From the NCBI RefSeq assembly GCF_000009965.1, contig NC_006624.1:360001-392000 (forward strand): 32,000 nt of DNA, written 5' to 3'. Below, piece after piece: positions 24,534-26,205 of this stretch (position 1 is the first letter of the stretch; each line of letters opens with the position of its first letter). The notes beneath the pieces were generated by a model, which had not been told where the DNA came from, did not search any database, and was given only the letters and a program-made list of their open reading frames with translations. The DNA comes from Thermococcus kodakarensis KOD1. Lineage in GTDB: Archaea > Methanobacteriota_B > Thermococci > Thermococcales > Thermococcaceae. Both the position numbers and the translations under genes were made by a program.

Positions 24534-25046
24534 TCAAACCCAGCACAGCTCGTAGTAGGCGCACTTTTTGCACCTCTTTGATTTCACCGGCTCGGGTGGA
24601 GCCTGGAGTGATTTTATCCTCTGGACTTCTCCAATTGCCGCCTCTACTTCTTCCTCCCTGCCGTCGAGGGTTATCACCTTCGTCTCGTTGAGCTTTGGAT
24701 AGTGAAGAACTGCTTTGGCTTCGATACCGAGCCTCTTGAGGTAGTAAAGGTAGTAGAGCGCCTGCATCTCGTGAGCCTTCTCCATGCTCTTGCCGAGCTT
24801 GACCTCGTGGACTTCTATGTAGTCCTTTTTCCTGATGAAGTCTATCTTTATGCTCCCGATCTGGACTTCCTTCTCCTCGCTGGCATAGCGCCTCTCGTGG
24901 AGGAACTTTCCGAGATCAACCCACTCGTTCTCCTGCTCCATCGTGATGCCCCTGGAGAAGTACCAGAGCTTGGTCGGGCAGATGAAGAGGTAGTTGACCT
25001 CGGTGCCGCCGATGAGGAGCTCGTCGAGAGAATACTTATCTTCCAC
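24534..25046 (-). CDS. cas4: Cas4-family nuclease (paralog 2)
   Basis: N-terminal Cys ([10 protein letters not shown]) plus C-terminal [11 protein letters not shown]...EVK motif: [16 protein letters not shown]. QxxxY: QALYYLYY. The likely start is GTG 25046, after GGAGGT, overlapping the ATPase stop. The ORF track gives TTG 25097. Confidence 0.85.
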
Positions 25047-26145
25047 TTCCAAACCTCCAGAGAAGCCAGTGATGGAGGAAGGGGTCGCTGATCTCAAATT
25101 CTCCGTTAATGCGGTGTATCAGCTCCTTCTCCCTGAGGGCCTTGATTGAGTATTGAACTGAGGAAGCCGAGCTAAACCTGTACCTTATAAGGAACTCAGA
25201 AGAGTACAGATCCTTTTCTCCCCGGGCTATAGCTAAGAGAACCTTCCTCTGGGAGAGCGGCAGGGAGTCCCATATCTCTATGTAGCTGGCTTCGCTTTCT
25301 TTAACGAGTTCTTCAAACGTCTTTTCGACGTCTTCCATCTCGAGGCTTCCTTTGAGCTTTCCGACGTACCAGAGCCGGTGGCAGAACTTTTGAGTGTAAT
25401 AGGGATGGCCCCCAGTTAGCTCAAGAACCATATCCACGATGTTCTCCCTGACCTCGATCCCCGTTTCCTTGAATTTCTCCAGTATAAACTCTTTGAACTC
25501 GTCCTTCGGGATCTTTCCAAGAACCATGTGCCTCCCGAAGTTGTAGAACGGGCTCTGGGCCGAGCGGAATATTCTCTCCATCATGCTCCTCCTGCTCCCA
25601 ATGAACACGAAGGCCACATCCCTCTGCCACTGGAACTTCGAGCGCATTTTTTTCAGGACGTCCTCCCCAAGTTCAGCAACTTCCTGGAACTCATCGAAAA
25701 CAACCACTACCCTCTTCTCAAGATGCTCTGCCAGCCGCTGGGGGAGTTCGAGAGACTCCTCAAAGGCAGTTTCCTCTTCCCCAAAGGTGAACTCGACCTC
25801 AAGTGCATCTCCGAGACGGATTTTTGGAGTAACTTTTTTGAACAGCCTTTTGGCACTCTTCAGAAGGTTTTGGAACTTTAAATGCTTCAGGGATTCAGAG
25901 GCTATCTTCTCCGCAAACTCCTTCTTTGTCAGCACGCCGTAGCAGTCTATCCAGAGGGGAACAATCCGGTCTCCTAGGGAGAGAATGGCGTTGTAAACGA
26001 GTGAGCTCTTCCCGAAACGCCTTGGGGAGTAAATTATCACGTTCTGGCCGCTCAGCATTTCCATTTTCAGCTCTTCAAGCTCCTTTTTTCTGTCCGCAAA
26101 GTCCTTACCGACGACCGGTTCGCCGTATCTGAAGGGGTTCTCCAT
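25036..26145 (-). CDS. Archaeal AAA+ ATPase (Arch_ATPase/COG1672-like) with a C-terminal winged-helix (DUF234-like) domain
   Basis: The opening [22 protein letters not shown] is characteristic of this family. Walker A: [11 protein letters not shown]. Walker B: [11 protein letters not shown]-terminal: [22 protein letters not shown]...[14 protein letters not shown]. Confidence 0.8.
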
Positions 26146-26205
26146 TACAGTCTCACCTGTAACAGTTTATACTGTAATGATTTTTATAGTTTTGGCTGTA
26201 ATCAC
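26146..26205 (-). promoter_or_regulatory. Promoter region of the ATPase-cas4 unit, with repeated TTACAG motifs
   Basis: The minus strand reads GTGATTACAGCCAAAACTATAAAAATCATTACAGTATAAACTGTTACAGGTGAGACTGTAATG. The TATA element AAACTATAAAAAT is flanked by ATTACAG copies. A third TTACAG and an inverted CTGTAA bracket the RBS and start codon. Confidence 0.5.

Follow-up and report, generated by a model that had tools for sequence, protein, structure and literature searches.

The closest described relatives of TK0459, a protein of Thermococcus kodakarensis KOD1, are the ATPases of PF01637/COG1672, of which two members with solved structures (SSO1545, PDB 2FNA; PAB2304, PDB 2QEN) have the same Walker motifs as TK0459. 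Many PF01637/COG1672 proteins bear a C-terminal DUF234, classed as a PD-(D/E)XK (RecB-family) nuclease, that is, the superfamily of Cas4 (PMC3424549, PMC1462988). Literature searches for a functional study on COG1672, PF01637 or DUF234 returned none. The Orc1/Cdc6 initiators share with TK0459 an AAA+ base, a lid and a C-terminal winged helix-turn-helix (wHTH), and their binding to repeated DNA elements depends on ATP. They act at origins, whereas TK0459 is encoded between cas3 and cas4 and has putative 18-bp palindromes on its own promoter. The known archaeal example of adaptation-gene control is Csa3a in Sulfolobus. Csa3a and Csa3b of the Sulfolobales resemble TK0459 in combining a sensor with a winged helix, in being placed to control cas genes, those for adaptation included, and in having a palindromic promoter site. 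However, their sensor is a CARF domain whereas that of TK0459 is an AAA+ NTPase, the proteins have no sequence relation (no CARF or Csa3_N match was found in TK0459) and for TK0459 we infer the regulation. STAND/Avs NTPases, like TK0459, carry an NTPase and a winged helix of the broad Orc/Cdc6-STAND assemblage, but their sensor-repeat and effector domains are absent from TK0459; the nSTAND1 model scored 24.3 bits, below its cutoff of 27.1, and Avs3 was among the Foldseek matches. TnsC, MuB and IstB are AAA+ DNA-binding ATPases found beside an integrase-type enzyme, a place that Cas1 takes for TK0459; the likeness is one of analogy only, and no sequence or specific structural match between them and TK0459 was found.

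The window analysed here is a 32-kb stretch of the T. kodakarensis KOD1 genome (360001-392000), and positions below are window positions unless stated otherwise. The gene itself was already known: it had been noted as a non-cas ATPase of this locus (Elmore 2013) and called 'loosely associated' with CRISPR (Makarova 2006, PMC1462988), and genes of its type were treated as non-cas (Vestergaard 2014). As far as our literature search went, the operator logic described below is apparently new. The genes around TK0459 and the features of its protein were as follows.

22856-23848, minus strand: cas1 (TK0455), last adaptation gene (PF01867, E = 5e-83)
23849-24262, minus strand: vapC PIN (TK0456) (Pfam PIN; Elmore 2013)
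24250-24477, minus strand: vapB-like gene (TK0457) (Pfam MazE_antitoxin; Elmore 2013)
24534-25046, minus strand: cas4 (TK0458), GTG start (PF01930, E = 3e-59; TIGR00372; RefSeq start)
25036-26145, minus strand: TK0459, AAA+ ATPase (PF01637 ATPase_2) with C-terminal winged helix (RefSeq 385036-386145)
25042-25257, minus strand: C-terminal winged helix and final helix of TK0459, residues 297-368 (DSSP on the AF2 model)
25129-25167, minus strand: predicted recognition helix, residues 327-339 (AF2 model, alignment A1)
25681-25710, minus strand: Walker B, residues 146-155 (V149-E155 invariant in alignment A1)
26002-26028, minus strand: Walker A, S40-P-R-R-F-G-K-S-S48 (SPRRFGKSS; alignment A1)
26206-28437, minus strand: cas3 (TK0460), last gene of the type I-B (Cst) effector cassette (100% identical to P0121)

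The first-pass annotation had described a 369-aa protein with Walker A and B motifs and a wHTH, and this was confirmed by the ORF (25036-26145, minus strand, ATG start), by Pfam, by alignment and by an AlphaFold2 (AF2) model. PF01637 matched TK0459 with 58.2 bits against a cutoff of 33.2, over residues 16-252 and profile positions 1-223 of 225; the family that had been suggested for it holds as far as PF01637 is concerned, but the DUF234 tail named with it is absent. Invariant Walker A positions in the 27 sequences of alignment A1 were S40, P41, R42, G45, K46 and S48, and both motifs expected of PF01637, the P-loop G45-K46-S47-S48 and the DExx pair D151-E152, were invariant across this set. 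The AF2 model (mean pLDDT 91.8) accounted for the whole length of the protein as NTPase, lid and wHTH, with a helix-helix-helix-beta-beta winged helix at residues ~297-352 (DSSP); in the predicted recognition helix V330 and Q331 were invariant and Y332 was clade-specific. The top full-length Foldseek matches were 2QEN and 2FNA (E 1e-15 and 1e-14; TM 0.68-0.71, winged helix included), both of which were also matched by a profile search with TK0459. Archaeal Orc1/Cdc6 structures came next (E 1e-9 to 1e-11, identity 11-15%; for 2V1U, 1FNN and 2QBY E was 7e-11 to 8e-10 and TMq ~0.5), although the Pfam/NCBIfam matches included no Cdc6/Orc profile, only AAA_22 and AAA_16 below threshold. With the AAA+ base, lid and wHTH of DNA-bound archaeal Orc1/Cdc6, the fold speaks for the self-regulator reading given below. 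None of the curated Cas models of NCBIfam matched TK0459 (0 families), and a PADLOC scan gave weak non-Cas matches only, with no significant defence-system match.

The cas3 stop codon (TGA, 26206-26208) adjoins the region upstream of TK0459. At the other end of the gene, the earlier proposal that the ATPase stop overlaps a cas4 GTG behind GGAGGT proved correct: the TAA of TK0459 is at 25038-25036, the in-frame GTG is at 25046, 6 nt after GGAGGT (25058-25053), and RefSeq starts TK0458 at exactly this GTG (genome 384534-385046). The overlap is 11 nt because the annotated GTG lies at 25046 and the stop ends at 25036. A vapBC pair (23849-24477) is inserted between cas4 and cas1; T. litoralis, P. 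furiosus and T. henrietii lack it. The cas2 gene (TK0445) is at 14589-14846 on the plus strand, and a Csa3 protein that matches Csa3_N/CARF models (TK0448, 16304-16981) is encoded in the same cluster. On the minus strand of the 19-gene cas cluster, primary transcription start sites (TSSs) are listed only for TK0464 and TK0459 (PMC4247193); the published list has no primary TSS between the TK0459 promoter and cas1. Reads in this dRNA-seq set, a 5'-biased method, drop from 134 for TK0459 to 9 for cas4 (PMC4247193). Read-through from the TK0464 promoter could also feed cas4 and cas1.

The region between cas3 and TK0459 contained the following elements, read from the sequence except where a source is given.

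26146-26205, minus strand: cas3-TK0459 intergenic region, 60 bp, with promoter and putative operators (alignments A2, A3)
26184-26201, minus strand: putative operator O1, TTACAG-CCAAAA-CTATAA, 5/6 arm pairs
26182-26193, minus strand: BRE/TATA element AAAACTATAAAA, -35 to -24 from the TSS
26160-26177, minus strand: putative operator O3, TTACAG-TATAAA-CTGTTA, 5/6 arm pairs, -19 to -2
26158, minus strand: primary TSS of TK0459 (dRNA-seq, PMC4247193 supplementary file 2, TTS0386158_-)
26145-26162, minus strand: putative operator O2, TTACAG-GTGAGA-CTGTAA, perfect palindrome, -4 to +14

This 60-bp region was better conserved than its flanking genes, with a mean column identity of 82% (A2) and 72% (A3) versus 50-76% protein identity for the ATPase. 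The primary TSS of TK0459 was mapped by Jaeger et al. 2014 (PMC4247193) to genome position 386158 on the minus strand, which corresponds to 26158 and gives a 5'UTR of 13 nt. The element AAAACTATAAAA was unique within the window and invariant in the five loci of A2, and in the window it is flanked by CTGTAAT (plus strand) at 26172-26178 and 26196-26202. Its distance to the TSS matches archaeal core promoter spacing. An inverted TTACAG/CTGTAA pair (26157-26162 and 26145-26150) encloses GGTGA. The repeats make up three 18-bp palindromes of the TTACAG-N6-CTGTAA type (O1, O3 and O2), which lie over TATA box, start site and ribosome site and together span -43 to +14 around the published TSS. The right arm of O1 is the TATA box, and in L094, L095, L101 and L103 this site is a perfect TTATAG-N6-CTATAA. 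The arms of O3 co-vary, being TTATAG...CTATTA in L096 and TTACAA...TTGTTA in L098. O2 contains the TSS and the Shine-Dalgarno (SD) sequence GGTGA (26152-26156), its last base is the A of the ATG, and its arms also co-vary (TTATAG/CTATAA in L096 and L097; TTATGG/GCATAA, core TTATG/CATAA, in L105).

The clustering of these repeats at the TK0459 promoter was beyond chance. The 60 bp formed the densest TTAYA cluster of the 32-kb window, with six sites, a number reached in 0 of 300 Markov simulations, and TTACA-N6-12-TGTAA occurred once in the window against 0.05 expected; no other TTAYA-box cluster was found in the window, CRISPR leader region included. The repeat-decorated promoter reported in the first-pass annotation is real in this sense, and the published TSS lies inside it. 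Four TTAYA boxes were at fixed positions in 19 related loci (A2, A3), and all four changed together, to TTATA in L096 and L097 and to TTATG/CATAA in L105. That the boxes change together, and do so locus by locus, speaks for a cis-encoded binder. The same layout (box, TATA, box, box, SD, inverted box) was also present upstream of non-cas Archaeoglobi orthologues.

Analysis of the wider family revealed the same geometry. Perfect TT[AT]NNN-N5-7-NNN[AT]AA palindromes had a density of 4.1 per kb in the 110-nt stretches that precede homologues, where 44 of 104 loci carried them, versus 0.066 per kb elsewhere in those loci (1.32 Mb), a 62-fold upstream enrichment, and the spacer of the upstream palindromes was nearly always N6 (6-6-6 geometry). 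Palindromes with 6-bp arms numbered 2.55 per upstream region versus 0.56 in shuffles. The 6-6-6 palindrome was found upstream of homologues in both Archaea and Bacteria, including Actinomycetota, Chloroflexota and Elusimicrobiota. Where residue 332 of the recognition helix was R or K (19 proteins), half-site position 6 was C in 19/19; where it was Y (eight proteins), position 6 was G in 8/8; and with an 'SGS' recognition helix it was A in 4/4. Split by 45%-identity clusters, the pairing of R/K with C gave 9/9 versus 0/3 (Fisher p = 0.0045). Residue 332 tracks operator base 6 and explains no other operator position, with few independent clades behind the correlation. When all protein columns were compared with operator positions 4-6 by mutual information, a measure confounded by phylogeny, residue 332 ranked first and residue 331 fourth for position 6, and nothing pointed to the wHTH for positions 4 and 5.

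We put at about even the chances that TK0459 regulates itself in an ATP-dependent way and that cas4-vapBC-cas1 are driven from its promoter as well. In this reading TK0459 would be a self-contained, self-regulated cassette made of an Orc1/Cdc6-like AAA+ ATPase and a winged helix. The winged helix most likely binds 18-bp TTAYAG-N6-CTRTAA palindromes as a dimer, with O1 (over the BRE/TATA element), O3 (in the stretch from TATA box to TSS) and O2 (over the TSS and the ribosome-binding site) as the putative sites; that TK0459 itself is the binder is suggested by sequence covariation. Because these sites cover the core promoter, their occupancy is proposed to block TBP/TFB or RNA polymerase, so that binding by TK0459 would repress its own promoter. 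Occupancy would be set by the nucleotide state of the AAA+ module, and ATP/ADP or another signal may modulate binding. O3 and O2 share 3 nt, which keeps simple dimers from filling both; this, the fall in reads towards cas4 and, among the loci described below, NA2 and the ATPase-free loci of P. furiosus and T. litoralis weigh against the reading. As the cassette sits, in a Thermococcales lineage, exactly at the cas3/cas4 junction, the TK0459 promoter is the only mapped primary promoter before cas4-(vapBC)-cas1, and transcripts from 26158 would continue through cas4 to cas1. The spacer-acquisition genes would then be under an ATP-dependent switch, with a logic analogous to Csa3a control in Sulfolobus. 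Three interpretations had been offered at first sight and together they were partly supported; most support falls to a sensor or regulator that controls its own promoter through its wHTH, from the three palindromes, the family-wide geometry and the correspondence of residue 332 with base 6.

Orthologues of TK0459 (50-92% identity), whose contexts were taken from contigs encoding matching proteins and from a metagenome scan, stood directly before cas4(-cas1) in 13 of the 14 Thermococcales loci with readable downstream sequence; PF01637/COG1672 at large differs in this respect from the Thermococcales clade, which is fixed before cas4-cas1. The effector cassettes ahead of them were of at least three very different type I-B types: in L095 and L099-L102 the upstream Cas3 was 23-29% identical to that of the window, compared with 66-82% for Cas4 and Cas1. 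The distance from the ATPase gene to cas4 ranged from -11 to +10 nt in the window and in T. henrietii, T. prieurii, T. thermotolerans, L094-L101 and L106. Within Thermococcales clades A and B, a cas locus was present at every locus with readable flanks. In Pyrococcus NA2 the ATPase and its promoter follow cas3, cas4 is ~7 kb away and there is no cas gene downstream. The ATPase is absent from T. litoralis, where cas3 overlaps cas4 and the rest of the locus is the nearest to that of the window (Cst2 93%, Cas3 86% identical), and from the cas3-cas4-cas1 locus of P. furiosus, where cas3 is joined directly to cas4; these two loci bear out the earlier statement that the ATPase is inserted. The window Cas4 was 81-83% identical to Cas4 of ATPase-bearing loci versus 78% to that of T. 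litoralis, whereas every other window Cas protein was closest to T. litoralis. Splitting Cas4 into thirds gave no recombination breakpoint, and the closeness of Cas4 to the ATPase-bearing loci was accordingly dropped as evidence.

Outside the Thermococcales clade the picture is different. The Archaeoglobi clade (A. profundus, L090, L091, L104 and L105; 55-58% identity) consists of solo genes outside cas loci, the paralogues of T. barophilus and P. kukulkanii are also outside cas loci, and toxin-antitoxin pairs, integrases or IS elements are often near both groups. A background set from the genome contig search (80 listed loci at 30-43% identity, no Thermococcales orthologue among them) contained ~95% solo genes outside cas loci, with cas genes within 8 kb in 2-4 of the 80; in L004 the ATPase has an MNT/HepT toxin-antitoxin pair as its neighbour and lies between cas6 and cas3'. 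The co-occurrence with cas genes, which the first-pass annotation had suggested checking, holds for Thermococcales clades A and B but not for the Archaeoglobi or for 76-78 of the 80 listed distant relatives. Plasmid and phage collections contained distant bacterial homologues only (<33% identity) and no sign of a plasmid- or virus-borne Thermococcales clade.

As the genes of the Archaeoglobi clade, like those of most distant relatives, stand alone, the protein must do more than regulate its neighbours, and since the nearest non-Thermococcales relatives are among these solo genes, a hitch-hiking defence-island cassette is a serious rival. TK0459 would then be a solo, self-regulated defence-island ATPase (a minimal STAND/Orc-like sensor, of abortive-infection type or selfish) with no CRISPR role, which landed like vapBC, its linkage to cas4-cas1 being one old insertion that was inherited and swapped along with the adaptation genes. 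We consider this possible, if somewhat doubtful. Besides the solo relatives, which also leave room for the earlier idea of an unrelated defence ATPase recruited to the island, this explanation fits a cassette that brings its own promoter and putative operators, its absence from T. litoralis and the non-cas classification by Elmore 2013 and Vestergaard 2014. However, TK0459 holds its place in both Thermococcus and Pyrococcus with ORF and motifs intact, the tight coupling to cas4 persists behind very different effector cassettes, and a mere neutral passenger should have been lost or scattered more often. The promoter, moreover, stands before cas4 and cas1 whatever the job of TK0459 itself.

An NTPase dedicated to Cas4, as also suggested at first, could be a direct adaptation factor that works physically with Cas4 or Cas1-Cas2, either in ATP-driven prespacer capture and hand-over or in selecting or preparing the integration target much as TnsC, MuB and IstB do for transposases. 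The synteny in 13 of 14 loci, with cas4 either overlapping the ATPase stop or starting no more than 10 nt away in 13 loci, is in keeping with such a role, as are companions that are always cas4-cas1 and never tied to one effector cassette; the superfamily shared by DUF234 and Cas4 is a weak domain-fusion hint. Nevertheless, gene overlap is usual in this operon where the ATPase is missing (cas3/cas4 in T. litoralis), ATPase and cas4 are apart in NA2, and the CRISPR leader region has no box cluster like that of the promoter. Spacer acquisition in P. furiosus uses Cas1, Cas2 and two Cas4 proteins, and its cas3-cas4-cas1 locus encodes no such ATPase. We therefore judge a direct role unlikely.

Least probable, and in our view very unlikely, is that the boxes are bound by another factor (Csa3 TK0448 or a global regulator) or that TTACAG/CTGTAA forms an RNA hairpin at the ribosome-binding site: Csa3 is encoded in the same cluster and Csa3 proteins reportedly regulate cas promoters in Sulfolobus, but the same boxes occur at orthologues with no csa3 nearby (T. 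henrietii, T. thermotolerans, Archaeoglobi), and the geometry of the palindromes goes with the ATPase gene from phylum to phylum and varies with the recognition helix of the ATPase itself. The hairpin, which the inverted pair bracketing the SD had suggested, was rejected as folding was no better than in shuffles (z = -1.44); with the TSS at 26158 the 5' arm is missing from the transcript, and a 5-6 bp A/U-rich stem is unlikely to hold at ~85 degrees C.

If the hitch-hiking explanation is true, TK0459 is a passenger like vapBC and should be left out when cas genes are counted. If TK0459 is a self-regulator, as we prefer, the finding bears on the timing of CRISPR spacer acquisition, which is poorly understood, above all in Euryarchaeota: the sole mapped promoter before cas4-cas1 belongs to the gene of a conserved ATPase that carries a DNA-binding domain. 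Genetics is routine in T. kodakarensis, so the switch idea is directly testable. More tentatively, PF01637-type ATPases of about 370 aa may be single-gene NTP-gated switches that autorepress through an 18-bp TTAYRN-N6-NYRTAA operator read by their own wHTH, the Thermococcales member having been co-opted as a gatekeeper of CRISPR spacer acquisition. Such a gatekeeper would tie the expression of cas4-cas1, and perhaps by direct contact the activity of Cas4/Cas1, to the nucleotide state of the cell or to an invader-derived signal. For a very large family whose members have no annotation beyond 'AAA family ATPase' or 'ATP-binding protein', the 18-bp putative operator is a first functional handle, and its pattern predicts self-repression and a simple residue-to-base rule.

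The window contains the cas gene cluster of T. kodakarensis KOD1, and adding 360,000 to a window coordinate gave, for every gene of the cluster, the genome coordinate tabulated in the supplement of Jaeger et al. 2014 (PMC4247193).

Gene order of the cas cluster
Minus strand, cas6, first in the listed order
Minus strand, cst1/cas8b1, cst2/cas7, cas5t and cas3 (TK0464-TK0460), type I-B 'Cst' cassette
25036-26145, minus strand, ATPase gene TK0459, after cas3
Minus strand, cas4 (TK0458), after TK0459
23849-24477, minus strand, vapB/vapC (TK0457/TK0456), AbrB-PIN pair between cas4 and cas1
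22856-23848, minus strand, cas1 (TK0455), after vapB/vapC
Minus strand, csa5, csa2, cas5a, csx9, cas3' and cas3'', type I-A, after cas1
Minus strand, csa3, cas6 and a Cas4-like PD-(D/E)XK gene, last in the listed order
14589-14846, plus strand, cas2 (TK0445)

In the published dRNA-seq listing, primary transcription start sites (TSSs) on the minus strand of this 19-gene cluster (window 14839-31980) were assigned to TK0464 and TK0459 only; csa5 (TK0454), the first type I-A gene, had no primary TSS listed despite a 175-nt gap 3′ of cas1. Internal and antisense TSSs were also listed, the latter in vapC, csa2, cst2 and cst1, and an 'internal' TSS within TK0459 was located at 25854 (minus strand), near codon 98 and 3′ of Walker A. 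The cas1 and cas2 genes were approximately 8 kb apart on opposite strands, with cas2 adjoining the Cas4-like gene. cas2 had its own primary TSS (genome 374580) and 233-543 dRNA-seq reads in the four growing-cell libraries, compared to 44-124 for cas1. The CRISPR array adjoining cas2 (13237-13470 and beyond) had the repeat GTTGCAATAAGACTCTAGGAGAATTGAAAT, the reverse complement of the TRF consensus, and its leader promoter probably accounts for orphan and secondary TSSs mapped to genome 374068-374152.

The first-pass annotation had described the 369-aa product of TK0459 as an AAA+ (Arch_ATPase-like) ATPase with Walker A and B motifs and a C-terminal winged helix. The profile search proposed there returned PF01637 (ATPase_2) above threshold, and TK0459 is a member of PF01637/COG1672. 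Both Walker motifs (A, S40-PRRFGKS-S48; B, V146-VVVFDEFQ-E155) were present and did not vary among 27 aligned homologues, and the AlphaFold2 model (mean pLDDT 91.8, pTM 0.85) contained an AAA+ base, a helical lid and the winged helix. Its top structural matches were 2QEN and 2FNA (TM 0.68-0.71), both structural-genomics members of the family that were also recovered by profile search with TK0459; archaeal Orc1/Cdc6 proteins, DNA-bound forms among them, ranked second. TK0459 may be likened to Orc1/Cdc6 in its working but lies outside that family, and in Pfam, NCBIfam and PADLOC scans it reached the threshold neither for STAND nor for any curated Cas family.

As had been read from the sequence, the end of the ATPase gene (TAA, 25038-25036) overlapped the start of cas4, whose in-frame GTG at 25046, also the RefSeq start of TK0458, lies 6 nt after GGAGGT. 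In T. litoralis, whose locus is the one most similar to that of the window (Cst2 93%, Cas5t 90%, Cas3 86% and Cas1 86% identity), cas3 overlapped cas4 and the ATPase was absent from the junction, and in P. furiosus cas3 and cas4 directly abutted. Since both genomes join cas3 to cas4, the ATPase and its promoter together constitute an insertion at this junction, which agreed with its earlier placement between the I-B effector operon and the adaptation genes. Foreign genes recurred in the cas4-cas1 slot: the vapB/vapC pair in KOD1 and, in two ATPase-bearing metagenome loci (L096, 5364-6173; L098, 7619-8428), a 269-aa metallo-beta-lactamase-fold protein with weak RNase Z-like matches. A third locus, L100, had a gap of the same size and probably carries this gene too. 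In T. henrietii, T. litoralis and P. furiosus cas1 directly followed cas4.

Orthologues of TK0459 occupied the same junction in T. henrietii (72% identity), T. prieurii and T. thermotolerans (both 53%, in the order cas3-ATPase-cas4-cas1) and Pyrococcus sp. NA2 (50%; L085, 8001-9814). NA2 was the sole Thermococcales locus among those compared with the ATPase not before cas4: the ATPase and its conserved promoter followed cas3, then came a convergent csa3, a type I-A cassette and finally cas4-cas1, approximately 7 kb beyond the ATPase. A metagenome scan added 13 loci, and cas4 lay immediately 3′ of the ATPase in all those with at least 70% identity and a readable downstream region (L094-L101, L106). 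In five loci (L095, L099-L102) the upstream Cas3 was only 23-29% identical to that of the window whereas Cas4 and Cas1 were 66-82% identical, and in L095 and L099 Cas7 and Cas5 came from other type I-B variants; the ATPase therefore travels with cas4-cas1 and not with one effector cassette. L106 (6-802) encoded an ATPase 80% identical to TK0459, 3′ of which only short tblastn fragments of cas4 (~80 nt) and cas1 (~260 nt) preceded csa5; the adaptation genes seem to have been reduced to a remnant by deletion. Between KOD1 and T. prieurii/T. thermotolerans no protein of the locus was less conserved than the ATPase (53%, compared to Cas3 62%, Cas4 81-83%, Cas1 82% and Cst2 79-82%), while the 60-bp promoter before it was ~80% identical. 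Such a pattern suggests that, on a fixed regulatory frame, the ATPase has evolved fast or undergone allele replacement.

Examination of the flanks revealed no cas genes near the ATPase in an Archaeoglobi clade (A. profundus, L090, L091, L104 and L105; 55-58% identity) or near the T. barophilus and P. kukulkanii paralogues (47-48%). A neighbour-joining tree grouped two cas-linked Thermococcales clades with the Archaeoglobi clade, apart from other paralogues. Among 80 distant relatives (30-43% identity) from many bacterial and archaeal phyla, only two had a cas gene beside the ATPase, cas6 both times, and two further ones had a Cas3-like helicase several kb away. The former were archaeal MAGs, L004 (108-6755) and L006 (1399-8067), with an ATPase_2 gene 35-36% identical to TK0459 directly after cas6. 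In L004 (Methanophagales) an MNT/HepT toxin-antitoxin pair, cas3', cas3'' and a weak Csa4-like gene followed; in L006 cas6 and an AAA_14/DUF4143 ATPase flanked it, and an SbcC-like gene lay upstream. The association of this ATPase with cas genes across genomes held for its Thermococcales orthologues and not for the Archaeoglobi clade or most of the 80 distant relatives. That the ATPase is a passenger of the defence island is plausible, if on the unlikely side: it has solo relatives, its presence is patchy among closely related cas loci, and toxin-antitoxin pairs keep it company (vapBC in the window, MNT/HepT in L004). A direct partnership with Cas4/Cas1 appears improbable. Synteny and tight gene coupling favour it, and many family members carry DUF234, a PD-(D/E)XK domain (PMC3424549, PMC1462988), a weak domain-fusion hint; however, the cas3-cas4-cas1 locus of P. 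furiosus encodes no such ATPase, and in NA2 the ATPase and cas4 are apart.

The 60 nt from the cas3 stop to the ATG of TK0459 read, on the minus strand, GTGA-TTACAG-CCAAAA-CTATAAAAATCA-TTACAG-TATAAACTG-TTACAG-GTGAGA-CTGTA-ATG, and so held the TATA box, ATTACAG repeats and inverted pair noted in the first-pass annotation. The promoter is experimentally real, because dRNA-seq placed a 'primary' TSS of TK0459 at genome 386158 (Jaeger et al. 2014, PMC4247193), which is window 26158, the A of the third TTACAG, giving a 13-nt leader with a GGTGA ribosome site. Read as palindromes, the repeats gave three putative operators here.

Putative operators of the TK0459 promoter
26201-26184, minus strand, O1, TTACAG-N6-CTATAA; right arm is the TATA box
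26177-26160, minus strand, O3, TTACAG-N6-CTGTTA
26162-26145, minus strand, O2, perfect TTACAG-GTGAGA-CTGTAA; spans TSS and SD and ends on the A of ATG

Across five genomes the region had a mean column identity of 82%, with AAAACTATAAAA, TGTTACAGGTGA and TGTAATG invariant, and was more conserved than the encoded protein downstream (ATPases 50-72% identical to that of the window). Four TTAYA boxes held fixed positions relative to the TSS in 19 loci (-43 to -39, -19 to -15, -4 to +1 and, inverted, +10 to +14). All four boxes had changed together to TTATA in L096 and L097 and to TTATG/CATAA in L105, a locus-wide change absent from other loci that is expected if the binder is encoded beside its own sites. 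The same layout preceded the non-cas Archaeoglobi orthologues, which assigns the sites to the ATPase gene rather than the cas locus. The 32-kb window, including the other cas promoters and the CRISPR array vicinity, contained no other TTAYA cluster of equal density, and the exact inverted pair TTACAG/CTGTAA was unique within it. Another binder at the boxes or an RNA hairpin is very improbable, as the boxes are present in loci without csa3, the TSS position contradicts a hairpin and the predicted fold of the region was non-significant.

The same design (6-bp arms, 6-nt spacer, outer bases TTA...TAA) was found 5′ of distant homologues in Altiarchaeales, Bathyarchaeota, Nitrosopumilus, Omnitrophota, Margulisbacteria, NC10, Chloroflexota, Actinomycetota, Elusimicrobiota, Ignavibacteriota and Bacteroidales, with inner half-site bases varying by lineage (TTATAC, TTATGC, TTATGT, TTACGC, TTACGA, TTTCGC). 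Perfect TT[AT]NNN-N5-7-NNN[AT]AA palindromes had a density of 4.1 per kb within the 110 nt before the ATPase genes and 0.066 per kb elsewhere in the same loci's 1.32 Mb, a 62-fold difference; such upstream palindromes were present in 44 of 104 loci, and their spacer was nearly always N6. In the predicted recognition helix, the residue that follows the conserved V-Q (Y332 in the window) tracked half-site base 6: R or K accompanied C (19/19 proteins), Y accompanied G (8/8) and a divergent 'SGS' helix accompanied A (4/4). With proteins clustered at 45% identity (12 clusters), C occurred with R/K in 9/9 and otherwise in 0/3 (Fisher p = 0.0045), which represents few independent events. Mutual information between protein columns and operator positions gave no clear partner residue for positions 4 and 5. 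The correlation at base 6 is therefore regarded as supportive, not conclusive. The non-cas paralogues of T. barophilus (L088, 7940-8003) and P. kukulkanii (L089, 7940-8003) had their own upstream repeats, AATTATTTAAAGTTGA twice in the former and TTAAGTAACTT twice plus GAGTAATG in the latter, where one perfect TTACTT-N6-AAGTAA palindrome was present; the architecture was the same and the box sequences different.

The best-supported mechanism is self-regulation through O1, O3 and O2, as a switch placed to gate the adaptation genes, which we regard as having an even chance of being correct; the fold and motifs, the TSS, the putative operators with their conservation and the synteny support it. 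A TK0459 dimer would bind the three sites through its winged helices and occlude TATA/BRE and the start site, the usual mode of action of archaeal repressors. Occupancy or oligomerisation may be set by the nucleotide state of the AAA+ domain. Transcripts from the TK0459 promoter would run through cas1; the cassette lies before cas4-(vapBC)-cas1, where no other primary TSS is mapped, and is so placed to gate these genes.

Among the 'genes loosely associated with CASS' of Makarova et al. 2006 (PMC1462988), TK0459 appears as a regulatory AAA ATPase; Elmore et al. 2013 recorded it as a non-cas ATPase of the locus, and its TSS was mapped in 2014 (Jaeger et al., PMC4247193). A literature search found no functional study of it. 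As far as could be found, the ATPase-cas4-cas1 unit conserved across different effector cassettes is new, as are the candidate three-operator layout and the family-wide 18-bp putative operator with its apparent residue-to-base rule. TK0459 would be of the kind of regulators of cas gene expression, a hypothesis and not a demonstrated new mechanism, which is concrete and cheap to test in a tractable organism. The hypothesis also offers a way into a very large, functionally uncharacterised family.
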